Shown: positions 1,228 through 42,892 of the stretch, one piece after another
How the letters are laid out: each line of letters begins with the position of its first letter
How positions within the stretch are numbered: the stretch's first letter is position 1
From: Candidatus Aminicenantales bacterium
GTDB lineage: Bacteria > Acidobacteriota > Aminicenantia > Aminicenantales > Saccharicenantaceae
Reading direction: 5' to 3'
Assembly: GCA_049512315.1 (NCBI GenBank)
Contig: JBEKXF010000028.1
Location: forward strand, 1-43,929
DNA length: 43,929 nucleotides
Notes under the pieces: generated by a model
The model's input: only the letters and a program-made list of their open reading frames with translations
Told to the model about the DNA's origin: nothing
Databases searched by the model: none
Position numbers and translations under genes: made by a program

Positions 1228-1312
1228 AAGTGCGCCTGGCCTGACTCGAACAGGCGACACACCGCCTTCGGCAGTGCTGGCAAGGCCGGCATGGATGAGG
1301 AATGCGATCCGA
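1228..1312 (-). repeat. tRNA-Arg(CCT)-type 3' half with hairpin insert, copy 1 (putative att site)
   Basis: Minus strand reads anticodon-loop variant TTCCTCA-TCCA-[insert]-TGTC-GCCTG TTCGAGT CAGGC-CAGGCGC-A. Near-identical to the copies at 10687, 12331 and 32954. Confidence 0.85.
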
Positions 1313-1329
1313 CGTTCTTGGGGAGTCAA

Positions 1330-2259
1330 ATGAAACATTTAATCCGTCCTATGCTGCCCACACTTGTGACGGAGCCTTTCAGTCGAGCCGGCTGGATCAA
1401 CGAAGAGAAATACGATGGTTTCCGAGCCTTGGCTCACCTCAGCGGGGACAACGTTAAACTTTACTCGCGCAACCTGAAGAATATAACCGCCGATTATCTG
1501 GAGATTGCCCAAGCGCTCAGAGAACTCTCTGGGGGGGACTTTGTGCTTGATGGGGAGATCGTTGCCTTCGACCAAAAGGGCGTCTCCCGTTTTCAACTCC
1601 TCCAGCGACGCGAGTTCGACGTCAAAGTCCGGCCAATTTTCACTCTCTTCGATTGCCTCGAGATAGACGGGGATGAGATTCTGAAAAAGCCGCTCATTGA
1701 ACGCAGAGAAGCATTGGAGACGATTGTGCCAGTTCGGCATCCATTGCTCATGCGTTCCCGGCTTCTTTCATCAAACGGGCTGACGGCTTATGAAGAGGCT
1801 AAAAGAAGGGGATGGGAGGGGATTGTTGCGAAAAACGATGACTCTCCCTATGAACCGGGGAAACGAACGCGAACCTGGCTGAAGGTCAAATGTCGTAGGG
1901 AATCGGAGTTTGTCATCGGTGGCTATACCCCGCCGGCCGGTCATCGGACTCATTTTGGGGCGCTTCTTGTCGGCCTCTATGACGGCGGGAAACTCTGTTA
2001 CACCGGCAAAGTGGGGACAGGTTACTCCGAAGAGGCTCTGACGGAACTCGCCATGAAAATGAAACCGCTGGCGAGATCAAGATCTCCTTTTGAGCCGACG
2101 CCACGGGAGGGAGACGCGACTTGGGTTCAGCCCATACTCATCGCCCAGGTTGCTTTCGCTGAATGGACGAAGGATGGAAAATTGCGCCAGCCGGCGTTTC
2201 TCGGTCTCCGATACGACAAGAAGCCATCGGAGTGCCAATGGAGGGAACGTGACCGGTAA
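1330..2259 (+). CDS. ligD: ATP-dependent DNA ligase, NHEJ LigD ligase domain
   Basis: Motifs EEKYDGFR, LDGEIV, WEGIVAK, WLKVK and OB-domain LRQPAFLGLR. Start moved to ATG 1330 (GGGAG RBS) because the ATG at 1291 lies inside the repeat. Confidence 0.9.
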   Translation: MKHLIRPMLPTLVTEPFSRAGWINEEKYDGFRALAHLSGDNVKLYSRNLKNITADYLEIAQALRELSGGDFVLDGEIVAFDQKGVSRFQLLQRREFDVKVRPIFTLFDCLEIDGDEILKKPLIERREALETIVPVRHPLLMRSRLLSSNGLTAYEEAKRRGWEGIVAKNDDSPYEPGKRTRTWLKVKCRRESEFVIGGYTPPAGHRTHFGALLVGLYDGGKLCYTGKVGTGYSEEALTELAMKMKPLARSRSPFEPTPREGDATWVQPILIAQVAFAEWTKDGKLRQPAFLGLRYDKKPSECQWRERDR

Positions 2260-3169
2260 AAGAAGATTTGGTGAGGCGGCTAGTGTCGAAAGGGTCAAGA
2301 TCACGCATCCTGACAAAATCTGGTGGCCGGAAGAAAAGATCACGAAGCTCGATGTTGCTCAGTACTATGCGGCCGTGGCCCAGCACATCCTCCCCTGGTT
2401 AAAAAAGCATCCGCTCACTGCTGAACGCTGCCCCGATGGGATGGCAGGGGAATGTTTCTTTCAGAAGAATTTTTCTGAGGATCTTCCTTCCGGTGTCCCC
2501 ACCCGGGCCCTTCCCGCCGAAAGCGCCGGGGAAGTCGTCCATTATGCTATTGGAGGATCGATCAGGACTTTGCTGGCCCTTGTGAACCTCGGATGTATAG
2601 CCGTTCATGTCATGAACTGCCACGTTGATACTCTCGATGATCCTGCCTGGCTGGCCTTCGATCTCGATCCATCCTCAGGAAAATTCTCGGACGCGGCCAA
2701 AGCCGGGGCCGTTCTCCATGGAATTCTGAACGAACTCCGGATCCCATCTTACCCGAAGACCTCCGGTGGAAAAGGCCTCCACGTCTTCGTCCCTTTGAAG
2801 CATAGCCCAAATCAGGAGCAGGTTCGCGAATTCGCCCGCCGGATCAGCCAGGAAATGGTCGATCGGTCACCAGAACTCATCACAGTTCAGATGTCAAAAT
2901 CGAAGCGACATGGCCGTGTTTTTTCAGACTGGCTCCGCAATGCCTTTGGGCAGACGATCGTTGCGCCATACTCTGTGAGGCGACGCCAAAAAGCCCCTAT
3001 TTCCACACCTCTTCACTGGGAAGAAGTGGATCGCAGCCTTGAACCATCATCCTTCAACCTCTTAACGATTGAGCATCGGCTTAAGGGAAAGGATCCGTGG
3101 GCCGACTTCTGGAGGAACCCCCAGGTTCTGCCAAACCTCAAATTGACCTCCCCCTTTTTAAGTTGTTAG
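2249..3169 (+). CDS. stand-alone LigD primase-polymerase (Pol) domain protein
   Basis: ITHPDK, ITKLD, RCPDG, FFQKN, FDLDP, KTSGGKGLHV, APYSVR. Probable GTG start at 2249 overlaps the ligase stop; the exact start is uncertain. Confidence 0.88.
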   Translation: MTGKRRFGEAASVERVKITHPDKIWWPEEKITKLDVAQYYAAVAQHILPWLKKHPLTAERCPDGMAGECFFQKNFSEDLPSGVPTRALPAESAGEVVHYAIGGSIRTLLALVNLGCIAVHVMNCHVDTLDDPAWLAFDLDPSSGKFSDAAKAGAVLHGILNELRIPSYPKTSGGKGLHVFVPLKHSPNQEQVREFARRISQEMVDRSPELITVQMSKSKRHGRVFSDWLRNAFGQTIVAPYSVRRRQKAPISTPLHWEEVDRSLEPSSFNLLTIEHRLKGKDPWADFWRNPQVLPNLKLTSPFLSC

Positions 3170-3252
3170 CCTCTTCGAGCCGGATGTTGCCCGAGGCCGG
3201 TATCCATGATAGAGAGGGACGACGTCCACGAAAAAACGCCGGCCGGCCGCGC

Positions 3253-4149
3253 TCACTGACAGGCAATGTCGCCCGGGATGCGACAGGCTTCCTCGGGGAG
3301 TTCGATCTCTACCGTCGAATGGAAGAGGCCGAGGCCTCCGACGACCCGCCGCACATCGTCCTTGAGCCGGCGGTATTCCTCGGGCGCGAGGTCGCGGTCC
3401 ACGACGAGGTGGGCCGAAAGAACATTATGCTCGCCGTCGAGGGACCAGACATGGACATGGTGAACGTTCCTGACGTGATCGATTTTCCCGATGGCCGCGG
3501 ATATGGCGTCGAGGTCCGTGCCTTTAGGCGCCGCTTCAAGAAAGATGGGGACGACGGACCCGAGATTCCTGAAGGCGCGGCCGAGAACGTACAGCGTGAT
3601 GAGAATGGCCAGCAGGGGGTCGAGGATCGGCACGTGCCTGAAGAGGAGGACGACGGCGACGACGAGGACCGCGACCCAGCCCAGGACGTCCTCGAGCAGA
3701 TGAAGGGCGACGGTCCGGGCGCTGAAGCCGGTCTCCTTGCCCAACCTTCGCATGGCCAGGGCGTTGGCCGCTATCCCGACTACGGCGAGGGCGGCCATGC
3801 CCCGGGCGTCCGCGTGGTCGGGCCGGGTGAGGCGGGGCACGGCCCGGGCCAGCACGAACAGAGAACTGGCGAGCATAAAAATCGTGGTGATCAGGCCGCC
3901 CAGCAGGGAAAACCGCCGGTATCCGTACGTATACGCGCCTTCCCCTCGCCGCCCGGCCAGCCGCTCGAAATACCAGGCCTGGGCCAGGGCGAAGGAATCC
4001 CCGAGGTCGTGCACCGCGTCGGCCAGGATGGCCGTGCTGTTCGTCAAGAGCCCGCCGGCGATTTCGACGAGCGTGAATCCCGCGTTCAGGAAAAAGGCTG
4101 CCAGGATGCGCTTCGGGGACGATCCGGACCCGGACTGGGGATGGTTCAT
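3253..4149 (-). CDS. cation diffusion facilitator (CzcD/ZitB-like Zn/Co/Cd exporter)
   Basis: AILADAVHDLGD, YTYGYRR, LHLLED, VHHVHVWSL; six TM segments. Confidence 0.9.
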   Translation of the reverse strand: MNHPQSGSGSSPKRILAAFFLNAGFTLVEIAGGLLTNSTAILADAVHDLGDSFALAQAWYFERLAGRRGEGAYTYGYRRFSLLGGLITTIFMLASSLFVLARAVPRLTRPDHADARGMAALAVVGIAANALAMRRLGKETGFSARTVALHLLEDVLGWVAVLVVAVVLLFRHVPILDPLLAILITLYVLGRAFRNLGSVVPIFLEAAPKGTDLDAISAAIGKIDHVRNVHHVHVWSLDGEHNVLSAHLVVDRDLAPEEYRRLKDDVRRVVGGLGLFHSTVEIELPEEACRIPGDIACQ

Positions 4150-4162
4150 TCTCTCGGCGGCC

Positions 4163-4190
4163 TCAAGGGGAGTTTAGCATACTCCCTTGA
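4163..4190. terminator. inverted repeat or hairpin just upstream of the CDF gene (terminator or operator)
   Basis: TCAAGGG(G)AGT-TTAGCAT-ACTCCCTTGA; no clear U-tract. Confidence 0.35.
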
Positions 4191-4193
4191 ATT

Positions 4194-4672
4194 TCAGAAC
4201 TTTGAATGGGCCATCGTCCTTAAAATTAAATTGCCCAGAAGTTTGCTGCCGGCAATAACTATTAACGCAACGACCAAATGCCAAACGATTTCCTGCAAAG
4301 AATTCGTCTTCCTCTTTTTTGCAATGAAATAGCTTAGGATAGCGAGTCAAACCAAACCCCAGATGGAGGAAACAATGAAGGCGGCGTGCGAAGAAAATAA
4401 TAAAACAATGAGAATGAATGTGAACGCAAGAAATAGCCTGACTATAAAATTTCTATATGTCGATGAATTGATATCCTGCTTGGAAGCTCCTTCCGATTCT
4501 TTATAGATATGGATGCCCAGGGAGTCCGAGATATTATCCGCAATCGCAATAATCAAAAGACCGGAAATGATGCTTGTTCTTGCGCTGTCTCCCTGATTTA
4601 ATCCTGCAACTAATCCCATGCTGGTGATGATCGCCGCTGTCGCCCCATACTGAATTTATTGATGTTCAGCAT
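4194..4672 (-). pseudogene. VIT1/CCC1-like membrane transporter pseudogene
   Basis: MLNINKF, then a frameshift into YGATAAIITSMGLVAG...IIAIADNISDSLGIHIYKESE. In-frame TGA at 4347-4349, after which the frame continues LAILSYFIAKK...EIVWHL...SKF to a stop at 4194. Confidence 0.7.
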
Positions 4673-4765
4673 GTTATCTCATTTTCCCATTGACGGACCT
4701 TGTCCCCAAAAGCTGCTCCAGTCAAAAGCGTAGTTTTTTGGCCTTTGAGCCGCTCCCCATATTGG

Positions 4766-4790
4766 GACCATTTTTCAGGGGGTAGGTCCC
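4766..4790. repeat. short copy of the module-junction motif GACCATTTTTCAGGG..TCCC
   Basis: 15-nt identity to 23224-23238 and similarity to ~33200-33225. Confidence 0.5.
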
Positions 4791-4811
4791 GGAGACAGGG
4801 GGGTTATGTGC

Positions 4812-7800
4812 CTACTTCTGCGTGTCTCGCTTCTCCCACTCCTCTCTCGTAAGGGGCGTGATCGGTTCCAGCTTCTTCTCTGCGAGGCCCCTGTTCACGC
4901 CAGCCAGCTCCTTGGCGGCCCAGGCGTCGAAGTCTTTCGCGACGTCGTCCAGCTCCCGCGCGAGCGTCCCGGTGCGTTCGACCTGTGCCTGGGTCGGCTT
5001 GCCCTCGTATCCCATCACGGCTCCGTAGAGGTCGGAGAGGTACTCGCGAAGCCGCTCCTCACCGGTGATCATCCCGCCTTCCTTTGTGGCGACGATCTCC
5101 TTCCGGAACTCGTCGGCACGTATGGACGCGGCCTGCAGACGCTGACCGAGGGGCTCGTCCGCCGCCAGTTTCAACGCACGGTCATCGAGTGCTGTCCGGA
5201 CACTATTGATCCGATCGACGACGAACGTCATGTCCCCAAGCATGTTGGACAACTTCATGGACAGGTCAAACTGCGCTTTGCGGTCTTCGAGCGTGTGTTT
5301 CGACCTCGGGTCGAGGCCGACTGTGAGCTTGGTGGTATAGATCTTTTTGTCCTTCAGCATCTTCACGGTGTACGTCCCGGGCAGAACGCGCGGGCCGACA
5401 CTGCCGCCGGCTGCCGTGGCGGCGGGCGGGACTCTTGGCGCCTTCAATCGCATGCCCCAGGTCATTCGGCTGAGTCCCCGGCGTTTGCTGCTGGGAATCG
5501 TGCCCATCGACTTGCCGTTCTCATCGAAGACTTCGATTTTGAGGTCGCCGAAGATGTGGCGCTTCTTCTGATAATACGTGATCGTCGCATCGTCGGTGGG
5601 ATTGGGAGCGGAAAACGAGGCATCCCCGTTTGACCACCCGCCCCCCGCCGGAATCCGCTGGATGGGAGGTTTCGCTTCAATGAACATCGCGTCCTGTGCG
5701 AGTGCCTCCGGCGTCAGCGCGCGAAGCGGCGTGATGTCGTCGATGATCCAGATCCCGCGGCCGTGCGTGGCAATGACGAGGTCGTGGTCGCGCGGATGGA
5801 TGGCCAGGTCGCACACGGCAACATTCGGGAGGTCACCCCCCTTGTACTGCGCCCATTGCTGGCCGCCGTCGAGAGAAACCCACAATCCAAACTCGGTGCC
5901 GACGAACAAGAGGTCATGATTGACGAGATCCTCTTTGACGACATGCGCGTAGCCGCGCAGGGAATTTCCCTCACTGAGGATCGACGTCCAGGTCCGGCCA
6001 AAGTCCGTGGTTTTGTAGGCATACGGCCGCATGTCGCCGAACATGTGCAGGTCGAAGGTCGCATACGCGGCGCCGTCGCTGAAGTGGCCGGGGTCAACGG
6101 ATGATACCCAGGCATTCTTGGGCAATCCCTGGATGTTGCCGACAACGTTCGTCCAATTTTTCCCGCCGTCGCGAGTGACCTGAAGGTTGCCGTCGTCCGT
6201 TCCCACCCAGATGATATTTGGATCCCTCGGGGATTCAGCGATCGCGAAGATCGTTGTGTGCATTTCAGCCGAAGAGTTATCCACCGTGACGCCGCCGGAT
6301 TGTTCCTGTCTCTGCTTTTCGGGGTCGTTGGTCGTCAGGTCCGGTGAAATACGTTCCCACGTCTGTCCCTGGTCGCGCGAGCGGAACAGGAACTGGGCCC
6401 CGATGTAGAGGGTCCCTTTTTGCGTCGGGCTCACCTGAATCGGTGTGTCCCAATTGAATCGCAGTTGACCTTCCTTGTATTGAGGCAGCGGTTTGATGCT
6501 TCGGATTTCATGCGTTTTCCGGTTGACCCGTCCGATCTCTCCTCCCTGAGCTTCAGCGTAGATGTAATCGGGATCAGACGGATCGGCAAACATCCAGAAG
6601 CCGTCGCCGCCGAACATATTCTCCCACTGGCTATTGGTAATACCCCCCGGATACTGCGAAACGCCGACCCAGGAGCTGTTGTCCTGGAGTCCGCCATAGA
6701 CGTGATAGGGCATGTCCATGTCCATGCTGACGTGGTAGAACTGCGAGATGGGGAGGTTGTCGGCTTTCCACCAATGGTTGCAGCCGTCGTAGGAGTACCA
6801 GAGGCCGCCGTCATCTCCCGTGATGACGTGGTCGGTATTGTCGGGGTCGACCCAGACATCGTGGAAGTCGCCGTGCGCGCCGCCCGAAATGTAGCTGAAA
6901 CTCTTGCCTCCGTCCGTACTCATGATGAGCGGTCCATCGGTCTTGTAGACCTTGTTCTCGTTCTTGGGGTCGATGATCAGATTGGCGAAGTAGAACGGCC
7001 GCCAGAGCATATTCTGGCTCCGGTCGAGCGCCTGCCATGTCTGCCCGCCGTCGTCGGAGCGGTACAGGCCGTTCTTGGGCGGCTCGGCTTCGATAAACGC
7101 GTACACGACATTAGGCCTCGACGGAGCGACCGCCACAGCGAGGCGTCCCCACGGCTTTGAAGGAAGCCCCTTCGCGGTTTTTTCGTCGAGGTCGCTCCAC
7201 GTGGCTCCGCCGTCGGTGGTCTTGAAGAAGCCGCTTCCGCTGAAAGCGCCCGCGCTATCGCCGCCGGAACGGAACGTCCAGCCCTTCCTGCGGAAATCCC
7301 ACATGCACGCGAAGAGCGTCTTCGGATGCTGGCGGTCCATCGATATCATCGCGCAACCCGTGGACGCGTTAGCTCCTTTGAGGATCTTCGTCCAGGATTT
7401 CCCTCCGTCGGTCGTTTTGTACAATCCGCGTTCATCACTGTCACTCCACAATTTTCCCGTGACCGCGGCGTACACGGTATCCGGGTCGGTCGGATCGACA
7501 AGGATTTTGGCGATCCGCTCGGATTCCTTCAAGCCCAAGTTCGTCCAGTTGTCGCCGCCGTCCGTCGATTTGTAGATCCCGTCGCCGATCGAGACGCTAT
7601 TGCGCGCCCACGTTTCGCCCGTTCCCACCCAGATCACTTTGGGATTTGTCGGGTCGACCGTCACGGCACCGATGGACTGCACCGGCTGTTTGTCGAAAAC
7701 CGGCTTAAACGTCGTGCCCCCGTTGACCGATTTCCAGACACCGCCGCTGGCCGCCCCGACATACACGGTGAGGCGCTGACCTTCGTGCACGGCGTCGAGC

Positions 7801-7973
7801 GCCGCGACACGACCGCTCATAGCGGCCGAACCGATATTTCGCGCGCCCAGGCCGGAGATCGTCTCCGGGTCGATCTTCACGGGAAATTTCTTTTCCTGCG
7901 CCGCCACCCCGGCAGCCGCCGCGCCGCAGAGTATGACTGCTGATAACCATCGAGTCAATGTCATCTTCTTCAT
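4812..7973 (-). CDS. secreted BNR-repeat / VPS10-sortilin-like beta-propeller protein (often annotated glycosyl hydrolase)
   Basis: Signal peptide MKKMTLTRW...VAAQ. RNIGSAAMSGRV, many S/TxDGGxxW Asp-boxes, GGLQDNSSW, GGDGF, ATHGRG. Confidence 0.85.
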   Translation of the reverse strand: MKKMTLTRWLSAVILCGAAAAGVAAQEKKFPVKIDPETISGLGARNIGSAAMSGRVAALDAVHEGQRLTVYVGAASGGVWKSVNGGTTFKPVFDKQPVQSIGAVTVDPTNPKVIWVGTGETWARNSVSIGDGIYKSTDGGDNWTNLGLKESERIAKILVDPTDPDTVYAAVTGKLWSDSDERGLYKTTDGGKSWTKILKGANASTGCAMISMDRQHPKTLFACMWDFRRKGWTFRSGGDSAGAFSGSGFFKTTDGGATWSDLDEKTAKGLPSKPWGRLAVAVAPSRPNVVYAFIEAEPPKNGLYRSDDGGQTWQALDRSQNMLWRPFYFANLIIDPKNENKVYKTDGPLIMSTDGGKSFSYISGGAHGDFHDVWVDPDNTDHVITGDDGGLWYSYDGCNHWWKADNLPISQFYHVSMDMDMPYHVYGGLQDNSSWVGVSQYPGGITNSQWENMFGGDGFWMFADPSDPDYIYAEAQGGEIGRVNRKTHEIRSIKPLPQYKEGQLRFNWDTPIQVSPTQKGTLYIGAQFLFRSRDQGQTWERISPDLTTNDPEKQRQEQSGGVTVDNSSAEMHTTIFAIAESPRDPNIIWVGTDDGNLQVTRDGGKNWTNVVGNIQGLPKNAWVSSVDPGHFSDGAAYATFDLHMFGDMRPYAYKTTDFGRTWTSILSEGNSLRGYAHVVKEDLVNHDLLFVGTEFGLWVSLDGGQQWAQYKGGDLPNVAVCDLAIHPRDHDLVIATHGRGIWIIDDITPLRALTPEALAQDAMFIEAKPPIQRIPAGGGWSNGDASFSAPNPTDDATITYYQKKRHIFGDLKIEVFDENGKSMGTIPSSKRRGLSRMTWGMRLKAPRVPPAATAAGGSVGPRVLPGTYTVKMLKDKKIYTTKLTVGLDPRSKHTLEDRKAQFDLSMKLSNMLGDMTFVVDRINSVRTALDDRALKLAADEPLGQRLQAASIRADEFRKEIVATKEGGMITGEERLREYLSDLYGAVMGYEGKPTQAQVERTGTLARELDDVAKDFDAWAAKELAGVNRGLAEKKLEPITPLTREEWEKRDTQK

Positions 7974-7998
7974 ATTGAGATCCTTTTCCAGGCTGGAC

Positions 7999-8742
7999 TC
8001 AGTATTTTGTATTCGCTGGTATCGCCGGCTTCGCGAAGTCGCTGTTATTGACCGGCACGTTGGCTTCGATCTTTTCGTAAGTGACCGTCCCCCGGCCCTC
8101 ACTGCCCTTCACACGGGTTTCAACCGAGTGTGGCAGGTACCAGCCGTCGACTTCCTTGTAGTCGCCCAGGGATATTTCATACTCATGTTCCTCGCCCCGG
8201 ATCATGCGTTTGAGATCGACCTTGATCGGGACGTAGTAGTCCGTGTCCATGTAGTACGTCCAGGTGTCGCCGTTCGCGAGCGTCACTTCGAGCTTGAGGG
8301 CATCCGTGCCTTCGACCGGCTCCGTGCCGAGGTATTTGACCTTGTTTCCCTTCTGTTCGTAATTCACGATCGGGCCGTCGAAGTCGGCATCTTCGAGGAT
8401 TGCCTTCATCTCTTCTTCACCGAGAGACTCGGGATCCTTTTTGCCCTCCCAGGGTTCGATCTTCCATCCGGTCTTGCCGTCGTAGGCCGTGATGCCGGTC
8501 ATGGCCAGCATCGTGATCTCCTCCCGTACCAGATTGGGCCGCTTGTTCTCCTGACGGATCTTCACTTCAAACCCTCCCCCGCCGGAGATCTTCCCTGTCC
8601 GGACCAGCGTTTTTATGCTCTGGATCTTCTGCGCACCTCCGACGGTTCTCAGGTACTTATTGATGATCTCCTCAGCCGTTTGTCCCCTCAAGCATACGGC
8701 GAGGAGCAGAAAAGCGGCAACTTCCAGTAAAGCTCTACGCAT
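7999..8742 (-). CDS. secreted LolA-like / outer-membrane lipoprotein-sorting family protein
   Basis: Signal peptide, then QTAEEIINKYL..VGG, YDGKTGW, DYKEVDG..LPH. Co-oriented upstream of the VPS10-like gene. Confidence 0.6.
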   Translation of the reverse strand: MRRALLEVAAFLLLAVCLRGQTAEEIINKYLRTVGGAQKIQSIKTLVRTGKISGGGGFEVKIRQENKRPNLVREEITMLAMTGITAYDGKTGWKIEPWEGKKDPESLGEEEMKAILEDADFDGPIVNYEQKGNKVKYLGTEPVEGTDALKLEVTLANGDTWTYYMDTDYYVPIKVDLKRMIRGEEHEYEISLGDYKEVDGWYLPHSVETRVKGSEGRGTVTYEKIEANVPVNNSDFAKPAIPANTKY

Positions 8743-8817
8743 GATGATTCTCCTTCATCCCATTGATTTGTGAGCGGCTCCTCATAATCTTTCTCGTCTC
8801 AAAGAGTGCACCCACTC

Positions 8818-8847
8818 AATGTACCATCCCTGAACTGAGATTTTCAA
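8818..8847 (-). promoter_or_regulatory. sigma70-like promoter (module shared with 42561-42590)
   Basis: Minus strand TTGAAA, 18 nt, TACATT with TG extended -10; points into the 8742 operon. Confidence 0.5.
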
Positions 8848-9045
8848 GCCTTGGACCCGGCCTTGGACCTGAGCCCCCGGTTCAGTCCATTTGCCAGATG
8901 CTCACATTATCGCTGGACCAGTTTGAAGTTTCTTTTTGCCGCCTCTGAAGGTCTGGGAGGCTTTCCTTTTGAGCTCGTCTCGAATAAAATCATCAAGACG
9001 CCGATGAAGGGCGAAGAAAAATGAAGTTGGAGAAGGAGCGAAAGG

Positions 9046-10647
9046 ATGAAAAAGAACAAAGGTCTTCAGGCCATCATGATCCTCGTCCTGATCGCGTTCG
9101 GACCGGCGATCCGCGCCTGGGCCCAGGGACTCACGACCTCGCCGAAGCCGCAAGAGGTTAAGCCCTCTCCGGCGGTTGATATCATTTCGGCCATGGAGGA
9201 ATCCTCAGTGACCGAGCACGTGATCCGCATCAAGGGGCAGGTCTTCCCCTACCGGGCCACGGCTGGGACGACGCTTCTCCGCGACGATAAGGGCGAGCCC
9301 ACCGGCCTGATGTACGCCGTGGCCTATACCCGCAGCGACGTCAAGGACCTGAGCACGCGTCCTATCGCCTTCTTCTATAACGGCGGACCGGGCTCGGCAT
9401 CGATGTGGCTGCACATGGGCGCCTTCGGCCCCCGCCGCGTGTTCACGGTGGACGGCGCCTTCACCCCGCCCGCGCCCTACACCCTCGTGGACAACTCCGA
9501 GAGCCTGATCGATAAGACGGATATGGTCTTCATCGACGCCATGGGCACGGGCTACAGCCACGCCGCTGGCAAGGCTCAGAACAAGGACTTCTACGGCATC
9601 GACGAGGACGTCCAGGCCTTCGCCCAGTTCATCCGAACGTACCTAAATAAAAACAACCGCTGGAACTCGCCCAAGTTCCTCGTGGGCGAGAGCTACGGGA
9701 CCTTCCGCTCGGCCGCCCTGGGCCATGCCCTCCAGTCCCGGGACGGGATCCATCTCAATGGGATCGTCCTGATTTCGACCGTCCTCGACATGTCCACGAT
9801 CACCTTCGGCACCGGTGACGACCGACCCTATATTTTCTACCTTCCGAGCTACGCCGCCGTGGCCTGGTATCATCAAGCCTTGAAGAACCGGCCACCGGAC
9901 CTCGACGCCTTCCTGGCCGAGGTGCGCCGCTACGCCCAGGGTGACTATGCTGCGGCCCTGTTCAAGGGCGCCGGTCTCTCCGCCTCGGACAAGCAGGCCG
10001 TGGCCGCCAAGCTGTCCGAGATCACGGGCCTGAGCGTGGAATACTGGCTCAAGGCCAACCTCCGGGTGACGTTGGCCCAATTCAACGTCGAGCTCGAGCG
10101 CGGCCGCGGGCTGACCACGGGTCGCATCGACGCCCGGTTCACGGGCTTCACTCGCGACCTCCTGGCCGAGAACGCCCAGGGCGACCCGGAGGGTCCGGCA
10201 GTGGGCGGCGCCTTCACAGCCCTGCTCAACACCTACAATCATCAGGAACTGCGATTCGGACAGGACAAGACCTATAACACCTCGAGCGGCGGCGCCCGGG
10301 AGTGGAGCTGGCGTCGCCAGCCGATGACGGGCGGATTCCCTGGTGCGCCCAGCACGACGAGCGGCGGTTTCTTTCCCGGCGCGCCCAACGTCGAGTCCGA
10401 CCTCGCCCAGGCCATGGTCATCAACCCCCGCCTTCTCGTCCAGGTCGAGAACGGAGACTACGACATGGCCACCCCGTTCTTCGCCACCGAGTTCACCATG
10501 AGCCATCTCGGCTTGCCTCAGGAACTCCAGGCCAATATCAGGCTGAACTACTATCCCGCAGGACACATGATGTACCTGCACGACGAGAGCCGGGTGAGGC
10601 TCCACGACAACATCGCCGCCTTCATCGACCGGGCGACGCAGAAATAG
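9046..10647 (+). CDS. peptidase S10 family serine carboxypeptidase, secreted
   Basis: NGGPGS, GTGYS, GESYG (catalytic Ser), YDMATP, AGHMMY; signal peptide. Confidence 0.92.
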   Translation: MKKNKGLQAIMILVLIAFGPAIRAWAQGLTTSPKPQEVKPSPAVDIISAMEESSVTEHVIRIKGQVFPYRATAGTTLLRDDKGEPTGLMYAVAYTRSDVKDLSTRPIAFFYNGGPGSASMWLHMGAFGPRRVFTVDGAFTPPAPYTLVDNSESLIDKTDMVFIDAMGTGYSHAAGKAQNKDFYGIDEDVQAFAQFIRTYLNKNNRWNSPKFLVGESYGTFRSAALGHALQSRDGIHLNGIVLISTVLDMSTITFGTGDDRPYIFYLPSYAAVAWYHQALKNRPPDLDAFLAEVRRYAQGDYAAALFKGAGLSASDKQAVAAKLSEITGLSVEYWLKANLRVTLAQFNVELERGRGLTTGRIDARFTGFTRDLLAENAQGDPEGPAVGGAFTALLNTYNHQELRFGQDKTYNTSSGGAREWSWRRQPMTGGFPGAPSTTSGGFFPGAPNVESDLAQAMVINPRLLVQVENGDYDMATPFFATEFTMSHLGLPQELQANIRLNYYPAGHMMYLHDESRVRLHDNIAAFIDRATQK

Positions 10648-33757: not shown

Positions 33758-33819
33758 AACCAGCCTCCAATAAATAGGATTTAGCTTTCTTCTCTTTCTC
33801 TTAACAGGGGCAAGAACAC

Positions 33820-33909: not shown

Positions 33910-33987
33910 GGTCGTTCTCTCCCTTTACTCTGTCGAATATCCGTCATAGTTTCGGATTCTTCCGGACCTGTGGTCATTGTTACTTCG

Positions 33988-34152
33988 TTACTTCGCGGCA
34001 TCTTTGACCGCACGCTTCACATCCTTGGCTACGCCCTTGACTTGGCCTTTGAGTTCATCCCTCTCGCCCTCTCGCTCGAGCTTCTTGTCGCCGGTCAAGT
34101 CCCCTACCGCTTGCTTGATCTTGCCTTCGGTCCTGTCGATGATCTCGCCCAT
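33988..34152 (-). CDS. csbD: CsbD family stress protein (54 aa), missed by the ORF track
   Basis: MGEIIDRTEGKIKQAVGDLTGDKKLEREGERDELKGQVK...; RBS AGAGG. Confidence 0.85.
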   Translation of the reverse strand: MGEIIDRTEGKIKQAVGDLTGDKKLEREGERDELKGQVKGVAKDVKRAVKDAAK

Positions 34153-34163
34153 TTTCTGCCTCT

Positions 34164-34922: not shown

Positions 34923-35001
34923 TTTAGTTCCTCCTCTCCCTTCCCTGCTCCCAGCCGCTATTGGACGGGACGATGGGCTCGGGATAAGCTACCTTTCTAA
35001 G

Positions 35002-35017
35002 TGCAGTTTTCATGCCA
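35002..35017 (-). promoter_or_regulatory. sigma54 (-24/-12) promoter for the BON-CsbD module
   Basis: Minus strand TGGCATGAAAACTGCA gives GG-N10-GC, about 80 nt upstream of the BON ATG. Confidence 0.6.
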
Positions 35018-35234
35018 GAATCTCCCCGCATACTCAGAATGTCAGGAAATTGATTTCCTCTCTGGAAAAAAGCGGAATTTCAGGCGACCGACGACTCAAA
35101 ACCTCCGGTTAGACAAATTGAGCCATTATCCCGACTTAGAAATTATTCTATAAAACAGCACAATTCCTATTTAATCGGATATTTCGAATATATGGTAAGG
35201 GCGACGTTTCAAAGGTATTGCGAAAAGGAGAATA

Positions 35235-35288
35235 TGCCGAGGACGGGAATCGAACCCGTACAACCCTTGCGCAGCGAGGGATTTTAGT
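35235..35288 (-). repeat. tRNA-Leu 3' fragment (putative att remnant)
   Basis: Minus strand CTAAAATCCCT, long variable arm, ACGGG TTCGATT CCCGT, CCTCGGC A; no 5' half. Confidence 0.75.
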
Positions 35289-35337
35289 GACCTCATGCTG
35301 GTCGAGAACTTCCACTGATTAGCGGAAACATCTTCAT

Positions 35338-37664
35338 TCAGGAAGATTTGAGGGCGGCCAGACGTATCCTGGCGTCTTCAACGAGCGGCCGGAACCGGGG
35401 CTCGCAATCTTTCCAGAGGCTGATGAATTTTTCGTAGTTCTCGCGTGCTTTGCTCTTTAGACCTTTCTGCTCGTAGATCTTGCCCAGGTTATAGAAACTC
35501 CTGGCGTAAAGATCCCCCCAACCATACCGGCCGTAAGTCAAAAGAGTGATCTTTTAATAGTTTTTGAGTGCGTTGTCGGCGTCTCCCATCTCGAGGAAGG
35601 CTGAAGCCAGACTGTCAAGATAAAGTGCATTTGTTTCGATGGATTGAAAATTATATTCTCCTGGGCAGTGAGCCACGGCTTCGTCGAGGAGCTTCCGGGC
35701 GTCAGGCAAGTTCTTTCTGGCCAACTCCAGCCTTCCCCAAAGGTAGGGAATATTCGAGTCTGACTTCCTCAAAAACCCCGGAAGAAGGTGTTCGATCTCC
35801 CGAGTCAGCTTTTCAGCTTCAGGAAGGTTCCCTATTTCCAATTGGGCAACCGCTTCCCAAAAATAGCGCTCTCTCTTCTTGGGGACTTCATCTTCCATAA
35901 CAAGGGCGTCAGCCTTCTTGAATTCTTCAAGCGCTGGTTCGGGCATCTGACTTGCCATGTAAGCTAACCCTATTCCGAAATGAAAATTAAGCGGGTCTGT
36001 CTTTTCAAACAGCTTCTGGTAGGATTTCAACCGCCTCAGGGCCTTTTCGGGTCTTCCGGTCAGGATGTCTACGTAACTGAGCATTCGCACGGCCCGCGTT
36101 TTTTCTAGGTCGATTCTTGTATTATCCAGCCAGGTCCGATAGAATCCGGCGGCCTCCTCAGGTTCATCTTTGTAATAGGAAATATCTCCTTTCCCCCTTC
36201 ATATCTCGGCCATCTATCTGGATTAATACTGTTCGCTTGGTCCAATTCCTGCATTGCGAGGTCAAATCGCCTCTGCAGAATGTAGCAAAAATAAAGCCGG
36301 GAATGCCCTTTATCATTTCCAGGGTTGTTGGCGACAAATTCCTTCATGGTCTCCGTCGCCTTCTCGTCTTCCCCTAACTGCAAGTATTCGTCAGCAACGT
36401 TGACGTAGATTGCAAGATCCCTCGGCCTTCTCTTCATTATCATAGAATATTGCTCTGTGGCCAGTTTCCATTCGCCTAAGCTGCCATAAGTTACAGCGAG
36501 CATGTGATTCCCGAGATAGTCGTCCGGGTAGAGGCCCAGGACTTTCTTGTACATCTCGACCGCCTTGGGATAGGTCGCCTGGGACTGACGGTAATAATCG
36601 CCCTGGAGAATGTAGTATTCCCGCGGCGGCGTCCGGTCTTTAAACCGGAAGGCCTTCTCGAAGCTCTCCTTGCGCTTGGCAGATTGTCCCAGGTTCGTAT
36701 AGATGGCTCCGAGCAGTCTGTAGGCCATGGCAAACTCGGGATCGAGGTCGACGGCCTTCTTCAAGGAATTGATGGCATCGTCGTAATTCACATCCAGATG
36801 AAACCTTTCGCCCTCGACATAGTATTTCAGGGCTTCGGGGTTCCGGGTCATCACTTTGCCGATCTCCACATCGACGTCCGAGGCCATCTGCTCTTGAGTG
36901 ATGTTCAGCCCTTGCTTGATCTCCTTGACGAATCCATCCAGGCCCCCGCCCAAGATATTCTCTATGCTTTGCGCTTTCATCGAGAGCGTGGCTTACGTTT
37001 CTCCGGTTCGGCCGCTGACCAGAGCAGCCGTGATGAGGAAGTTCGGGCCGGCCTTGGCGAAACCCGCCTTGAGGAGGCTGCTTACGTCGGCTTCCTTGGC
37101 GATCTTCTTGATGTTATCAGAGGTCAGGGCCTTCTCTTCGGTGAGGTTCAGCTTCTTGAGCACGCCGTTCATTTCATCCTGTCGCAGCACCCTGAGGTAT
37201 CTTGATGAGGAGAGGCCGGTGATGAGGAGCTCCGGAAAACCATAGCGCTAGTTCTCGAGGCTGCTGTCGCCTGAGTAGTTTTCAAAGGGGAGGACGGCGA
37301 GGGAAGCTTTCCCGGATGAGACACCTGGCTTATGAGGGGAAGGGTGCCAGAGGAGGATGGCGATGACAACAAGAACCAGGAGACCAGCTGCAGGGACAAA
37401 AAGCTTCTTCGGCTTCGTGAACCCTTTCAGGTCCTCTTTCCGGCCGAACTCCCTATTGTTGAATTTGGCTTCGCCGTGTCCGAGTTTCTCCTCGAACCAT
37501 CGGTCGAGCTCGTCAGTATAGGCGTAGACCCTGGCCTTAGGCGTGCCGTCGAGCCGGTGGACGGGCAGGCCCATCTCGGACTCCCATCTCTGGCAGGTCC
37601 GGACGTTGCGCCTGAGATGGGCGCTGATTTCCTTCCAGGATTCGAGGATTCGCCGGTTCTCCAT
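35338..37664 (-). pseudogene. membrane-tethered HTH-TM-TolB-like-TPR protein, disrupted
   Basis: LESWKEISAHL.RNVRTCQRWE...GLPVHR, a TM helix, SLAVLPFEN, then TPRs. In-frame stops at 37248 (TAG), 36993 (TAA) and 35554 (TAA), plus a frameshift in a G-run near 36195. Confidence 0.85.
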
Positions 37665-37876: not shown

Positions 37877-37930
37877 AAGTGCCCCTGGCCTGACTCGAAC
37901 AGGCGACCTCCGGCGTGACAGGCGGCGTTC
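37877..37930 (-). repeat. copy 6: chimeric tRNA fragment with Asp(GTC) anticodon arm and Arg(CCT)-type T-arm/acceptor
   Basis: Minus strand GAACGCCGC CTGTCAC GCCGG AGGTC | GCCTG TTCGAGT CAGGC CAGGGGC A CTT. Confidence 0.8.
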
Positions 37931-38629: not shown

Positions 38630-40096
38630 TTAGGGAAGCCAGTCGGAGTTCTTTTTGAAGTTCGTGGCGGCAAATCTCGAGGCATAGGGATACCTCGCCT
38701 TGATGGCGTCAAAATCGCCGTCGTGGGGTTCTTCGAAAACATTGAGGAGCGGAGCCGAACCAGGATAGTGGATATTGCTCGCTCCAGCCGCCCCAAAAAG
38801 CTCCAGGGTTCCGAGGATTTCTTCATCGGGAACGGCCGCGACGACCGTCTGTAAAAACGGCCTGGCCGTCTTGAGGACTCCGGCCACGGCCTCAGAACTC
38901 TCGGCGGGCATGACCTGCACATAGCGGAACGTCTCGTCGGGGAGCCAGAATTCAGGGCGGTTGGAAATCCTTACGACGGCGTTTTCTTCGGGAGACACGA
39001 TAACGTTGGAAGCGCCATGGAAAATTCGTGCCAACTCCCGCCCGACTGGTTTCATGGCCGGATTCACCGGCGAGATCTCTAAAGCGAACCGGATCAGGCT
39101 GTCCGCAAGCTCTCCGGCAAAGGCCCGGTGGTCCCCCTGGACATAGATATTTTTCGTGCAGTAGCATGCCGCCCCGTCAAAAGCCGAGATGTCGCGCACA
39201 AGACCCTCGACGGCTTTCTGCCGGAGATCCGGTGCCTCGGCGAAAGCCCTCGAAATGTACGCGGCTCCGATCTTATGCCCGTGCGCCAGGATCGTCGGCC
39301 GGGGGCGCCGCAGCCGGGCACGGTCGGTGACATCACGGACAGTCGCCTCCGAACCCAAAACGTTGACGACATCGGAATGCGCGAGGACGATTCCCTCGAG
39401 CTCGCGGTCACCCCCCTTCCAATACCCGCAGGCCATGGTCTCCCGGACGAGAGGCGCGAACTCCGCCATTTTCTTCAGGTAGATCATCGGGAACACCGCT
39501 GACGTCGAGGGCAACTTGATGATCTGGGCCGCCCCGCCGTCTTTCACGGGCAGCCCGATCCTCGTCAGGATGGCCGAATATCCGACGACGTTGCCCGAAA
39601 CGAAGTGGCTGAGGAGCCCGGGTTCTCGCCACCGCGTGAGCGGGGAATTCCGGCCAAAGCGCTTCAGGTATCCAAACGCGGTTTCGACCGGCCGTCGGGT
39701 TCCGAACGCTTGTTCAACGAACCTGCCGATGAGGCTGCGGTCGTATTGGACGAGAGGGGAAAAGATGCCGAGGCCGAAGCGCTCGATGTCGTGGCGGGAA
39801 AACCCGTCGATCCGGTGGATGAGATCAACGATGGCCTGGATCTCCGGGCTACCGAGCGCGGTGAAATAGGAGTCGAGGCGGTCCATCACCTTCTGCATTT
39901 CCGGGAGTGAAAGGCGGGCGAAGACTTCGCCGGCCCTGGCCTTGAGCGCTGGAATGAGGGCCGCAAGGGATGAAGCTTCAAACCTGGGAAACACGAGGTC
40001 TATGCCGGCGACGGTTTCGGATTTCGTGGACTTGACATAGGGATCCTCGAAGACGATCCGCGGGGATGCGGCGAAAAGGGAGGGGAAATCACTCAC
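38630..40096 (-). CDS. acyl-CoA reductase, LuxC-like
   Basis: HFVSGNV, YWKGGD, GSEATV, HGHKIG, DISAFDGAACY (catalytic Cys), PHDG. GTG start overlaps the luxE-like stop. Confidence 0.8.
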   Translation of the reverse strand: MSDFPSLFAASPRIVFEDPYVKSTKSETVAGIDLVFPRFEASSLAALIPALKARAGEVFARLSLPEMQKVMDRLDSYFTALGSPEIQAIVDLIHRIDGFSRHDIERFGLGIFSPLVQYDRSLIGRFVEQAFGTRRPVETAFGYLKRFGRNSPLTRWREPGLLSHFVSGNVVGYSAILTRIGLPVKDGGAAQIIKLPSTSAVFPMIYLKKMAEFAPLVRETMACGYWKGGDRELEGIVLAHSDVVNVLGSEATVRDVTDRARLRRPRPTILAHGHKIGAAYISRAFAEAPDLRQKAVEGLVRDISAFDGAACYCTKNIYVQGDHRAFAGELADSLIRFALEISPVNPAMKPVGRELARIFHGASNVIVSPEENAVVRISNRPEFWLPDETFRYVQVMPAESSEAVAGVLKTARPFLQTVVAAVPDEEILGTLELFGAAGASNIHYPGSAPLLNVFEEPHDGDFDAIKARYPYASRFAATNFKKNSDWLP

Positions 40097-41279
40097 CGGC
40101 AATCTCCGCGGCCTTGAAAGCGCATCCCTCGGTGCCGCGCGACGCGGGCCCCTCGAATCGACAGACGCGGGTGAACGATTCGACCCATCCCTCGGCGGAA
40201 ACGCTCACGATTTCCGCCATATCGAATTCGAGGATGCTCATGTTGGCCGATGCCGGGCGGCCCGAAAGGCTGGGCGACACCACCTTGATCAGCCCCCGGC
40301 CCGAGCGGAGCGGTATTTCGCTCTCCGGGTCAACGATATACACCCGGCATTCGGGGGACGGGCGGAAGAGGAAGTCGTTCAGGTCTTGGTTCCAGTAACC
40401 CTCGATCTGGGCGGTTGTCTCGGTGAAGCTGTAGATGTCCTTGATATTGGCGGACCAGAAGGTGGAGTCGATGCCGAAGACCGAGGCGATCCTGGCGATG
40501 AAGGCCGGCTTGTCGATCTTCGCGCCGCGGATGGATCCCTTGGCACCGGAATATCCGCCGCCGCTGAAGGCAATATGAGCATTATCGTGCAGCGAGAATT
40601 CCCCCTCGCGAAACTCTTCGAGGTAGGGCCTGAGAAGGAGAGTGAGCCCGCCGAGGGAAATGGTCAGCCCCCGGGCATGGGCGTTCCGGATGAATGAAGC
40701 GACAGCTGAGGCCGCCATTTTCCGGATCGCGGCGGGGCGGCCGAGCGCCTGGTTCAGAAGGGTTTTCGGGAGGTCGATATCAAGGGTAACGTCCATTTCG
40801 GGGAAGCGCGCGTATCCGCCCTCGAGCGCCAGTTGCATTCTGAGCACGGCGCTTTTCCCCATGATCGCGGCCTTTTTCGACAGGTTGCGAAGGATGCGTA
40901 GCGACGGCGCGAACGCGATTCCGGTGGAAGAGGCCGGGGACGCGAAGGTCCGCGCATAAAGTCCGGCGACAGAGGCCCGGTCTTCGAGATTTGTATAAAC
41001 GTAGCTGGGGTCGCCGGACGTGCTGCTTGAGACCTGGAAAACGCCGGGAACGGCGAGGTCGCTGAGGTCTTCGATCAGACCCTTGGACCGCTTGAAGGCC
41101 GTTGAAACAACGCTCGGAAACCGATGGTAAGCGCCGTCGGCCACGATAGCGGCGAGGTCGGCTCGGGAGAGGTTTTTGCGGACACAGAGATTCCTGTAAT
41201 AGGAAAACCGATCCCACTGGTGCTCGATACCGGCGCGGGCCAGAGTCTGAAACCTTAACGTTTTCTCCAGATCGTTCAT
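40089..41279 (-). CDS. acyl-protein synthetase, LuxE-like
   Basis: YYRNLC, SSSTSGDPS P-loop, SGGG, DIYSFTE, C-terminal EGC acyl-accepting Cys. Confidence 0.78.
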   Translation of the reverse strand: MNDLEKTLRFQTLARAGIEHQWDRFSYYRNLCVRKNLSRADLAAIVADGAYHRFPSVVSTAFKRSKGLIEDLSDLAVPGVFQVSSSTSGDPSYVYTNLEDRASVAGLYARTFASPASSTGIAFAPSLRILRNLSKKAAIMGKSAVLRMQLALEGGYARFPEMDVTLDIDLPKTLLNQALGRPAAIRKMAASAVASFIRNAHARGLTISLGGLTLLLRPYLEEFREGEFSLHDNAHIAFSGGGYSGAKGSIRGAKIDKPAFIARIASVFGIDSTFWSANIKDIYSFTETTAQIEGYWNQDLNDFLFRPSPECRVYIVDPESEIPLRSGRGLIKVVSPSLSGRPASANMSILEFDMAEIVSVSAEGWVESFTRVCRFEGPASRGTEGCAFKAAEIAGE

Positions 41280-41744: not shown

Positions 41745-42464
41745 CTACCCGACCCGCGGATTCTGAGGGGAGAAATAAAAATTCACGTGGTCAACGCTCC
41801 CGTATTTTTTGATGAGCGCATACCGGTGTTTCGAAAAATATTCAAGGATCTGTCCCCTCACCTCTTTGTGCGCCTCGATGCAGACAAGGGCCGGGCGGTA
41901 GGTATCGATGTCGAATCCGGCCAGGGCCACAGGTTCGAAATTCTCGATATCCATCGAGAGAAAATCGAAGTGCGAGACGCCTTCTCTTTTGAGGAGATTG
42001 TTCAATGTGATCGCTGGAACTTTGATTTTCTCCAAGGCCCCACCTTTTTTGGCCCAGCCCTCGCTCCCTGAGGACATGCGATCGTTCTGAGGGATATAAT
42101 AAAAATCCGCCAGATCATCCGACCGGTCGGAAATGAAGAAATTGAAAAACTTCGTGTTCTTCCGGTACTCGAGATATCCGGCTTCAAATTTGGCGATCGC
42201 GTCGACGGCAATGCCTCTCCAGCCCAGGTACTTTTCAAGGTAATAGGTCGTGCTGTCCCGCCGGTAATCGCTGGCCCCGATATCGACGAAAAACCCGTTT
42301 TTCATGTCTCTGAAGAAATCTCGGATGATTAATTCTTCGTCGAATTGGGAGTAGAGCTTGGGACCGTATCTCTGGACGAGCCAGTTCGGCCTCGCACATT
42401 CATTCAAAACAGGGAGAAAGAGCAGAAGCAGGATAAAGCCAGCCCAATATCGGATTTTTTTCAC
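41745..42464 (-). CDS. FkbM family methyltransferase with N-terminal TM/lipoprotein-like signal
   Basis: YSQFDEE, FFVDIGA, STTYYLE, GWRGIAVD, DFLSMDIE. GTG start follows AGGAGG. Confidence 0.85.
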   Translation of the reverse strand: MKKIRYWAGFILLLLFLPVLNECARPNWLVQRYGPKLYSQFDEELIIRDFFRDMKNGFFVDIGASDYRRDSTTYYLEKYLGWRGIAVDAIAKFEAGYLEYRKNTKFFNFFISDRSDDLADFYYIPQNDRMSSGSEGWAKKGGALEKIKVPAITLNNLLKREGVSHFDFLSMDIENFEPVALAGFDIDTYRPALVCIEAHKEVRGQILEYFSKHRYALIKKYGSVDHVNFYFSPQNPRVG

Positions 42465-42560
42465 TTGTCTCCTCCTTTATCCGCCCAAGAAATCAAAATC
42501 CAGAAGCAGGGTGAACAAGTTCTCTTTGAGCGGGAGGACAAACCTGACCTGCTCCCGGCT

Positions 42561-42590
42561 ACTGTACCACATCTAAATTGAGATCTTCAA
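42561..42590 (-). promoter_or_regulatory. sigma70-like promoter (module shared with 8818-8847)
   Basis: Minus strand TTGAAG, 18 nt, TACAGT with TG extension; upstream of the FkbM gene. Confidence 0.5.
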
Positions 42591-42712
42591 ACTTGGGTGA
42601 GGCTCCAATCCACTAAATTTACCACCCGATCCGGATCAGAATCCGGGGAGCAGATCACGTTACCATTCGTATTATCAAGACGTACAAAGCTTAAAACATG
42701 GTGTCTCTGACC

Positions 42713-42732
42713 GTGCAGTAATTGTGCAGTAA
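42713..42732 (+). repeat. tandem GTGCAGTAA direct repeat (integrase arm-site-like)
   Basis: GTGCAGTAA-TT-GTGCAGTAA, about 110 nt from the tRNA fragment at 42841. Confidence 0.55.
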
Positions 42733-42836
42733 AGTGGTTGAAAATGGCAGAAAACTATCGAAAAAGGCGACTGCCCGAGGATCTGTGCTAAACGGAATAA
42801 AAGCTTGATTTTCCAGAGGCAACAAGGGGAAATAAG

Positions 42837-42892
42837 GGAGCGCGCCCGGAGGGATCTGAACCCCCGACCTTTGGATTCGACGTCAGACGCTC
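42837..42892 (-). repeat. tRNA-Arg(TCG)-like 3' fragment, direct repeat of 41605-41645
   Basis: Minus strand GAGCG TCTGA CGTCGAA TCCAA AGGTC GGGGG TTCAGAT CCCTC CGGGCGC G CTCC. Confidence 0.8.

Follow-up and report, generated by a model that had tools for sequence, protein, structure and literature searches.

Results

tRNA remnants in the window

The stretch of DNA analysed here (the window, 43,929 nt) is the whole contig C28 of the source genome G000, a Candidatus Aminicenantales bacterium of 3.55 Mb in 77 contigs; other G numbers denote related genomes (the family set comprises 87, including G000) and L numbers denote loci (L226 is G086:C15 and L231 is G014:C5). Modules of genes lie between displaced pieces of tRNA genes, and the proposal of the preliminary description that these pieces are attachment (att)-type scars of tandem integration is supported by our analysis. 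Eleven tRNA-derived sites are present, all readable on the minus strand. Ten minus-strand pieces had been described earlier, which are real and readable as stated, but an Arg(CCG) 3' half at 31959-32003 had been overlooked. Six sites (1228, 10687, 12331, 14012, 32954 and 37877) share a 33-nt repeat of the T arm and acceptor of tRNA-Arg(CCT), 94-100% identical, which matches the 3' end of the genome's own tRNA-Arg(CCT) (G000:C24:45426-45501). Three shuffles of one genome strand contained no match to the 28-nt core with ≤5 mismatches, and 0-1 with ≤7. With an nhmmer model built for tRNA 3' halves, the window had 12 matches to E≤5, seven of them with E<0.001 and all of these on the minus strand, and the best match in three shuffled windows had E=0.18. 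ARAGORN detected no intact tRNA in the window, and the single Rfam match was RF00005 at 41612-41680 on the minus strand (40 bits). That site, 41609, was earlier taken for an Arg(TCG) scaffold; the scaffold is of Arg type, but the loop of this pseudo-tRNA is Lys(CTT). The Leu-like site at 35235 is weak (E=0.028), and the site at 23043 is counted, and its strand assigned, by its left arm.

The window was described as lacking an integrase, and this was confirmed: none of the 13 PF00589 matches of the genome is on C28, and a six-frame search with the hidden Markov model found none either. None of the genome's serine recombinase matches is on the window contig, and no relaxase or type IV secretion families were found among the window open reading frames (ORFs) scanned. 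The GC content is 0.571, compared to 0.61-0.63 on the largest contigs of G000. In four cases a window gene ends at a distance of 1-41 nt from the 3' end of a tRNA half. Misassembly does not account for the array, because contigs from two runs not flagged as the source (X3 and X4) span the 14012 junction and the long contig of a relative bears the same kind of array; the run comparison covered all contigs of 4 of the 24 listed runs against window positions 1-20000, with small-share runs excluded.

Crossover points and arms

Among Arg(CCG) halves, 34 of 47 start at tRNA positions 27-34, in the anticodon arm, while 18 of 30 Arg(CCT) halves start at 45-49, many of them owing to an insert. The half starts thus fall on the anticodon loop (A) or the T-arm/acceptor junction (J), the subsites named in the available part of the Islander description (PMC4383910). 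The earlier statement that the Arg similarity ends near the anticodon loop has to be restricted: in four of the six Arg(CCT) copies a 30-nt insert intervenes, and identity is unbroken from tRNA position 45.

The flanks also carry traces of recombination arms. With what we take to be the consensus for integration host factor (IHF), an IHF-type site was found in 9 of 55 flanks on the 3' side and 5 of 55 on the 5' side; the mean in shuffles was 0.2, and 385 core intergenic stretches had none. In the window such sites occur in 2 of 22 flanks, and tandem arm-type repeats, present behind 4 of 7 reference sites, likewise in 2 of 22. The right arm of the junction at 32825-33230 is homologous to the arm behind the intact tRNA-Arg(CCT) and has an IHF-type site, and that at 42840-42892 has kept both a tandem repeat and an IHF-type site; the shared left arms at 10687 and 14012 have been trimmed to 48-59 nt. 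No window module has recognisable arms at both ends, the cores being retained and the arms partial or gone. There are also gene-less 190-nt units between halves, resembling the small cis-mobilisable elements (CIMEs) called microCIMEs as far as these are characterised in the excerpt at hand (PMC7563491).

Of 13 tRNAs with an anticodon loop between GA and TC, 9 have halves, against 5 of the 31 others (p=0.001; the rule is post hoc, and 6 ARAGORN calls were removed beforehand). This target bias could explain the mixed arrays and the loop swaps.

The insert-bearing Arg(CCT) half

The insert lies between the anticodon arm and the T arm in the copies at 1228, 10687, 12331 and 32954. At none of the 33 pattern loci (10 of them duplicates, excluded from the flank comparison) does the insert-bearing half stand behind a tRNA 5' half, and an intact tRNA allele as its source was rejected on the same count. 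No match was found in viral contigs. The insert was rejected as a dispersed repetitive extragenic palindrome (REP), as it is found solely inside Arg(CCT) halves bar one chance-level match, and as a stable hairpin, as it folds no better than shuffles. The insert-bearing half joins at least three left-arm types and many right flanks, those left arms also occur without the insert, and sister alleles of the M20 amidohydrolase unit have a half with the insert or one without it. Because no tRNA 5' half precedes the insert-bearing half, which nevertheless combines with various left arms and numerous right flanks, internal sites must have recombined or been converted. This suggests that internal halves, although non-functional as tRNAs, undergo exchange, either through an integrase or through homologous recombination, and the data do not separate the two. 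A longer form of about 60 nt with an extra palindrome is present in L122, L127, L128, L129, L136, L146 and L147, in which the insert itself appears to have grown.

Arrays and integrases in related genomes

In G009, of another genus, an intact tRNA-Arg(CCT) on a 1.95-Mb contig (C5) is followed by 11 co-oriented halves over 73 kb, that is, by the co-oriented downstream fragments expected of an Islander-type island, and the farther a half lies from the tRNA, the more mismatches it tends to have (rho 0.74, p=0.01, n=11). There is no integrase in 200 kb, and only three PF00589 matches genome-wide. A tyrosine integrase of its own for each island, also part of the Islander-type definition, is lacking in the window and in the G009 array and is present in a few elements of relatives. 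Full-length or contig-cut integrases adjoin an Arg(CCT) or Arg(CCG) site in G001, G047, G033 and G006 and a Thr half in G014. The tyrosine integrases expected for these tRNAs in the preliminary description therefore exist, but outside the modules. The integrase of G001 was rejected as a family-wide enzyme (1 of 87 genomes at E≤1e-45), and 49 of the 87 genomes, including the array-bearing G018, G036 and G086, have at most two PF00589 matches (E≤1e-15).

Pattern matches occur in 56 of the 87 family genomes, mostly as a single one, and the tRNA-Arg(CCT) site is near-empty in most relatives, with no half in 14 of the 17 read for at least 17 kb behind the tRNA. At the same tRNA locus the number and order of cassettes vary between relatives, and some cassettes are common across taxa. 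The aldo/keto reductase, CsbD module, amidohydrolase, S10 peptidase and bacillithiol operon of the window are also found in G009, in another order and partly in another orientation; gene order across the repeats is not conserved in relatives, in agreement with the preliminary description. Of 15 stretches read around other Arg(CCG) halves, 5 hold an array anchored at an intact tRNA (Asp, Thr, Leu or His).

Behaviour of single modules

The M20 unit ends at the T-arm core in all five aligned genomes, from three genera (G000, G002, G003, G009 and G012), and no other module retains its half in several relatives. In L153 the unit has a half on each side and another gene next to it, and the homology extends to 3 nt behind the tRNA end. 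Identity is 91.8% in G012, against a median of 78.8% for eight core genes, and 81.9% in two genomes of the same genus. In the M20 tree (29 of 30 loci, one partial copy being omitted, with L153 and L052 added and nine matches without loci left out), G012, G063 and G093 do not group with nine other members of their genus, which form a starred clade, and the half-bearing copies are not given a starred clade of their own (91/73). The half is kept in 6 of 31 M20 copies and has decayed by 4-7 of 28 bases in G003, G009 and G012, and the far end of the unit is a promoter region with no half in four of the five aligned genomes. M20 thus partly behaves as a cassette, and it is the sole module to do so.

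The half that precedes the tRNA-side end of the BON module is of Arg(CCT) type in G009 and Leu-like in the window. No tRNA half was found near the amino-sugar cluster or near the aldo/keto reductase in the four relatives checked for each, and no bounding halves were found at the bacillithiol operon in the two relatives checked (G003 and G006), nor in G009. The LolA-VPS10 genes are near tRNA-Asp in G002 and near tRNA-Glu in G009, the two loci read, and in G009 the S10 gene is fused to the M20 amidohydrolase gene without an intervening half. Contigs of run X5, from a close relative, contain LigD, VPS10-S10 and M20-bshA at a depth of about 95 and stop inside the 10687 and 12331 repeats, and in one joined contig the CDF block is missing, neither border having a tRNA site. 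The reductase is almost uncovered in this run; it was not counted as a precise loss, as no contig joins across. Neither circles nor precise excision junctions were seen in the run contigs over window positions 1-20000. Modules are ordered differently in relatives, but rearrangement also takes place where there are no tRNA sites, as the missing CDF block and the S10-M20 fusion show.

Halves and recombinases elsewhere in the source genome

The intact tRNA-Arg(CCT) predicted to flank the array exists in the genome with halves downstream, but on another contig, C24, where it lies beside fpg and the ftsEX-side core genes, with a full-length integrase and two helix-turn-helix (HTH) genes 9 kb away. 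A second full-length integrase is on C34, an array contig, and the wider island is therefore not integrase-free; integrase-plus-HTH elements occur on both contigs and in relatives. BLAST of 50 ARAGORN calls against the genome gave 87 fragment matches, 62 of them at ≥44 bits (two being contig-end pieces of real genes), so that the genome carries about 60 halves. A set of 26 low-GC contigs, 17% of the genome in all, holds 40 of these 62. The fragments are mostly of Arg(CCG) (29) or Arg(CCT) (10) type. Of 80 neighbouring pairs, 71 share a strand. With 11 Arg(CCT) and 22 Arg(CCG) pattern matches and 13 tyrosine recombinases, G000 tops the 87 family genomes.

Some observations concern the tRNA calls and recombinases themselves. 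The ARAGORN "tRNAs" at C4:5654-5727, C4:9401-9471 and C6:6752-6825 are long displaced halves with arm-derived 5' ends, which inflate tRNA counts. A mirror-image array type, made of 5' fragments, is seen in the tRNA-SeC 5' halves at G000:C17:4086-4124, C26:23699-23737 and C26:27285-27324, and an integrase adjoins the intact tRNA-SeC on C17. Tyrosine integrases of 460-487 aa (G000:C36:24110-25573, C17:48103-49485 and G033:C4:497959-499344) have a long N-terminal extension resembling an excisionase-type HTH, and each ends beside a tRNA or tRNA half (His, SeC, Arg-CCG). Three tyrosine recombinases of 203 aa, 87-90% identical, consist of the catalytic domain only (C2:15942-16550, C5:146844-147455 and C50:11672-12283); the one on C50 lies between ORFs of 141 and 288 aa, both without a Pfam or NCBIfam match, and a similar gene is present in G009 and G033. 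There was no support for these being split integron integrases. Ser/Thr kinase-TPR or kinase-PD40 genes start 60-130 nt behind halves on C24, C26 and C34 and in L226 and L231, with a shared promoter-like stretch, but kinase genes were rejected as typical cargo, as 4 of 34 begin within 300 nt of a half in G000.

Gene modules and other repeats of the window

The sites and modules are listed in Table 1. The module annotations given earlier were confirmed with Pfam and NCBIfam apart from two. The "HTH-TPR gene" is a frameshifted Ser/Thr kinase-TPR remnant from which the kinase domain is absent, and of the "luxE/C pair" LuxC was recovered (Pfam E=2e-28), whereas the "luxE" ORF has no Pfam or NCBIfam match. 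Genes of the window face both ways, and M20 and the reductase carry their own promoter-like sites. The bshA-bshB1-bshC set is complete at 15933-19423, above the NCBIfam cut-offs, and is also found in several related genomes; it predicts bacillithiol synthesis in this lineage.

Table 1. tRNA-derived sites, gene modules and a repeated element in the window.
Feature	Position	Strand	Remarks
tRNA-Arg(CCT) 3' half with 30-nt insert	1230..1301	-	Arm gone on both sides; 11 nt between its 3' end and the end of a TPR gene
Mixed block: LigD ligase and polymerase, CDF transporter, VPS10/BNR protein, LolA-like protein, S10 peptidase	1330..10647	.	Pfam
tRNA-Arg(CCT) 3' half with insert (10689-10760) and 48-nt remnant of shared left arm	10689..10808	-	
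Aldo/keto reductase with 4Fe-4S domain	10927..12141	-	Sole gene between two halves; promoter-like site at 12238
tRNA-Arg(CCT) 3' half with insert	12333..12400	-	Same junction in L153, there followed by a different gene
M20 amidohydrolase unit	12430..14044	+	Promoter 12433-12462, ORF 12532-13974, attached T-arm half
tRNA-Arg(CCT) 3' half without insert (14014-14056) and 59-nt remnant of shared left arm	14014..14115	-	
Bacillithiol operon: sodium:solute symporter, bshA, bshB1, bshC, PIG-L protein, DUF2911	14229..22713	-	
Short repeated element with imperfect inverted ends, resembling a miniature inverted-repeat transposable element (MITE)	22880..23036	.	Inverted second copy at 38385-38542
Anticodon-arm core, 3' half lost	23043..23059	-	Left arm common to 32954 and other junctions
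Amino-sugar/oxidoreductase cluster: DUF5009, GH20, M20, GFO, aminotransferase III, SDR, ADH	23273..31957	.	Pfam
tRNA-Arg(CCG) 3' half	31959..32003	-	ADH stop codon 1 nt from its 3' end
ICMT/PEMT-like methyltransferase	32033..32590	-	Sole gene between two halves, unit of about 1 kb; Pfam
Best-preserved junction	32825..33230	-	Arg(CCT) half with insert at 32956-33027; shared left arm of about 200 nt
orf175, CsbD and BON module	33257..35216	.	
Leu-like tRNA 3' half, weak	35236..35290	-	
Ser/Thr kinase-TPR gene remnant	35338..37349	-	Residues 365-1031 of G000:C34:246-3341, 72-75% identity
Chimeric half: Asp(GTC) anticodon arm and Arg(CCT) T arm	37879..37930	-	
LuxC-like acyl-CoA reductase and upstream 396-aa ORF	38630..41279	-	
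Arg-scaffold pseudo-tRNA, near full-length, Lys(CTT) anticodon loop	41608..41682	-	
FkbM methyltransferase	41745..42464	-	Sole gene between two halves, 1.23-kb unit
Arg-scaffold 3' half, altered loop	42840..42892	-	Left arm common to C27, C2, C57, C63 and G006

Other repeats are also present. The MITE-like element of about 160 nt, the ends of which we take to resemble those of the IS256 family, gave 27 BLAST matches to the element or its halves in G000. A 40-nt intergenic motif at 8901-8924, 14164-14187, 23206-23249 and 33182-33225 has 24 matches genome-wide, mostly on island contigs, and often adjoins what are presumably IS3-like end sequences. A promoter-plus-leader repeat of about 130 nt (41470-41605 and 32610-32716), without a match in Rfam, has 20 matches genome-wide and is usually found upstream of a co-oriented gene. 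Positions 44-134, at the left end of the window, correspond to the ends of eight other contigs at 98%, an unassembled repeat that is probably an insertion sequence (IS).

Discussion

The window is probably part of the interior of an additive tRNA island, the product of tandem accretion and decay in the manner of CIMEs, and the island behind tRNA-Arg(CCT) is most likely the one in question. Small integrative elements with lambda-type tyrosine integrases would insert at the anticodon arm or at the T-arm/3' end of tRNA-Arg(CCT), tRNA-Arg(CCG) and related tRNAs, and each insertion would leave the displaced 3' half, by a reaction that we assume from known families and for which integrases stand beside such sites in relatives. 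Deletions, probably aided by IS, would then remove the integrase and most of the arms and bring useful host-type genes up to the tRNA end, while later elements would push the older units outward, as is seen in the decay gradient of G009. The integrase-free units would travel mainly as passengers of visiting elements (cis-mobilisation). Now and then, exchange within repeats of 30-95 nt may mix halves of different tRNAs, and both the mixing and the chimeras are observed. The insert-marked half is found on many different flanks, which suggests that internal sites still recombine.

Several observations weigh against tandem accretion behind tRNA-Arg(CCT). The insert-bearing half is unexplained by plain accretion at the tRNA gene, and the reductase, which lies between two halves here, has none in G009. 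The integrase of G001 is without a close homologue in the 86 other family genomes, and its best match among the integrases of G000 is only 34%. Linkage of C28 to C24 was sought by contig overlaps and none was obtained, the contig ends being repeats.

The preliminary description saw in the array an integron-like system of maintained cassettes, which our data do not bear out, as no module has both arms and most modules are without halves in relatives. A narrower form of that idea is a live cassette pool: the internal halves would be minimal att sites, and integrases, whether visiting or resident, would recognise an anticodon stem common to them and act in trans to excise, move and reorder units of a single gene. 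The M20 unit speaks for this with its end at the T-arm core across three genera, its halves at both ends and different next gene in L153, and an allele that has moved between genera (the identity in G012 relative to core genes), as do the insert-bearing halves combined with several arms, the chimeric cores at 37877 and 41609, and the bias towards GA/TC-flanked loops, with its post hoc rule. However, few M20 copies keep a half and those in G003, G009 and G012 are decayed, its far end is mostly a promoter region, most other modules lack halves in relatives, no window module has both arms, and no circle or precise excision junction was seen, so that we consider such a pool rather unlikely. In its widest form, which we regard as equally doubtful, a lambda-type integrase set would read an anticodon-stem motif common to the Arg-CCG, Arg-CCT, His, Thr, Lys, Leu-CAA, Gln and SeC tRNAs and use internal halves, including the insert-marked one, as live targets, and promoter-bearing single genes would be exchanged between arrays and genera in an integron-like network without attC.

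Homologous recombination or gene conversion between the 70-95-nt repeats, or one-sided homology-facilitated capture, might instead have multiplied and homogenised the halves without an integrase, once scars had been seeded by one. A module often has one end exactly at a tRNA half and the other irregular, the Asp/Arg chimera switches within a short common stretch, and the arrays of G018, G036 and G086 occur with only two PF00589 matches, presumably XerC and XerD. Yet left arms join at the anticodon loop repeatedly, as in the clustered starts of the Arg(CCG) halves, the arms contain IHF-type sites and tandem repeats, integrases adjoin such sites in relatives, and repeats of 70-95 nt are short for efficient RecA exchange; we find this route improbable, more so than a live pool. 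An origin of the halves as a small dispersed repeat (of MITE or REP type) or through faulty assembly, in either case without relation to the module borders, is largely refuted and has very little probability left. True dispersed repeats do occur in the island, and Arg(CCG) halves are found at several distant loci in long-contig genomes, but the window sites are all on one strand and between genes, intact tRNAs anchor a third of the Arg(CCG) stretches read, the insert is confined to Arg(CCT) halves apart from the one chance-level match, and the contigs of X3 and X4 cross the 14012 junction.

The accretion reading makes the window an extreme and well-resolved case of a known route to accessory genomes. 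Island finders that require one integrase per island would miss nearly all of the array. The insert-marked half is a natural tracer that can show if internal att scars remain open to recombination; in that case tRNA islands could serve as pools in which cassettes are shuffled, and integrases that act across tRNAs would be interesting tools. A literature search gave no description of tRNA islands in Aminicenantes or of a tRNA-half cassette system, with most subscription papers outside its reach.

The novelty of an integron-like system is unsupported because integrase-free units between direct repeats of tRNA or tmRNA genes have already been described. In the excerpts considered of the cited papers, here and below, CIMEs and microCIMEs are tandem units at a target gene that have lost the genes for integration and transfer, 1.2-13 kb with cargo or 130-220 bp without, and the most decayed units are farthest from the target (PMC5704250, PMC7563491). 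The window fits the criterion of units without integration or transfer genes, as far as its ORFs were scanned. The tandems described in those excerpts have 2-3 elements, in contrast to the 11 sites in 44 kb here, where most arms are eroded and no integrative and conjugative element (ICE) or partner with a relaxase came to light, relaxases having been scanned for in the window ORFs. In Dehalococcoides, over a dozen direct repeats of the target gene ssrA lie within 100 kb downstream of it with host-adaptive cargo, and 15 of the ssrA islands lack the integration module and were proposed as CIMEs (PMC3146451). There, according to the same excerpts, the target is tmRNA, the enzyme a serine recombinase in a conserved six-gene module and the repeat of one type, whereas in these Aminicenantes several tRNAs are targets, the recombinases are tyrosine recombinases, and there are mixed or chimeric cores. 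Integrase-free units between target-gene repeats also make up the additive flexible genomic islands of Alteromonas and 'Ca. Actinomarinales' (PMC4898812, PMC7771536); the passages available do not give the att anatomy, which is resolved here down to arms, IHF-type sites, a half marked by an insert and chimeras between tRNAs. In the tycheposon islands of Prochlorococcus, elements with an integrase are rare and do not persist, older elements are displaced inward by new arrivals, and partial tRNAs and integrase fragments are scattered throughout (10.1101/2020.12.28.424599). Additive accretion is likewise seen in streptococci, Dehalococcoides, Alteromonas and Prochlorococcus.

The likeness to integrons lies in the row of small gene units between repeated sites. 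In contrast to integrons there is no IntI, as six recombinase-region proteins of G000 and the G001 integrase score far below the TIGR02249 cut-off of 265 (best 82), and no attC-like folded site, as the folding of whole units does not surpass that of shuffles (z +0.5 to -1.5 in 9 of 10 pieces). Integrons are also made of promoterless, co-oriented cassettes, unlike the genes here, which face both ways and have promoter-like sites of their own. The process is known from other bacteria, and what is distinctive here is the depth of the array, the mixed and chimeric tRNA cores and the insert-marked half.

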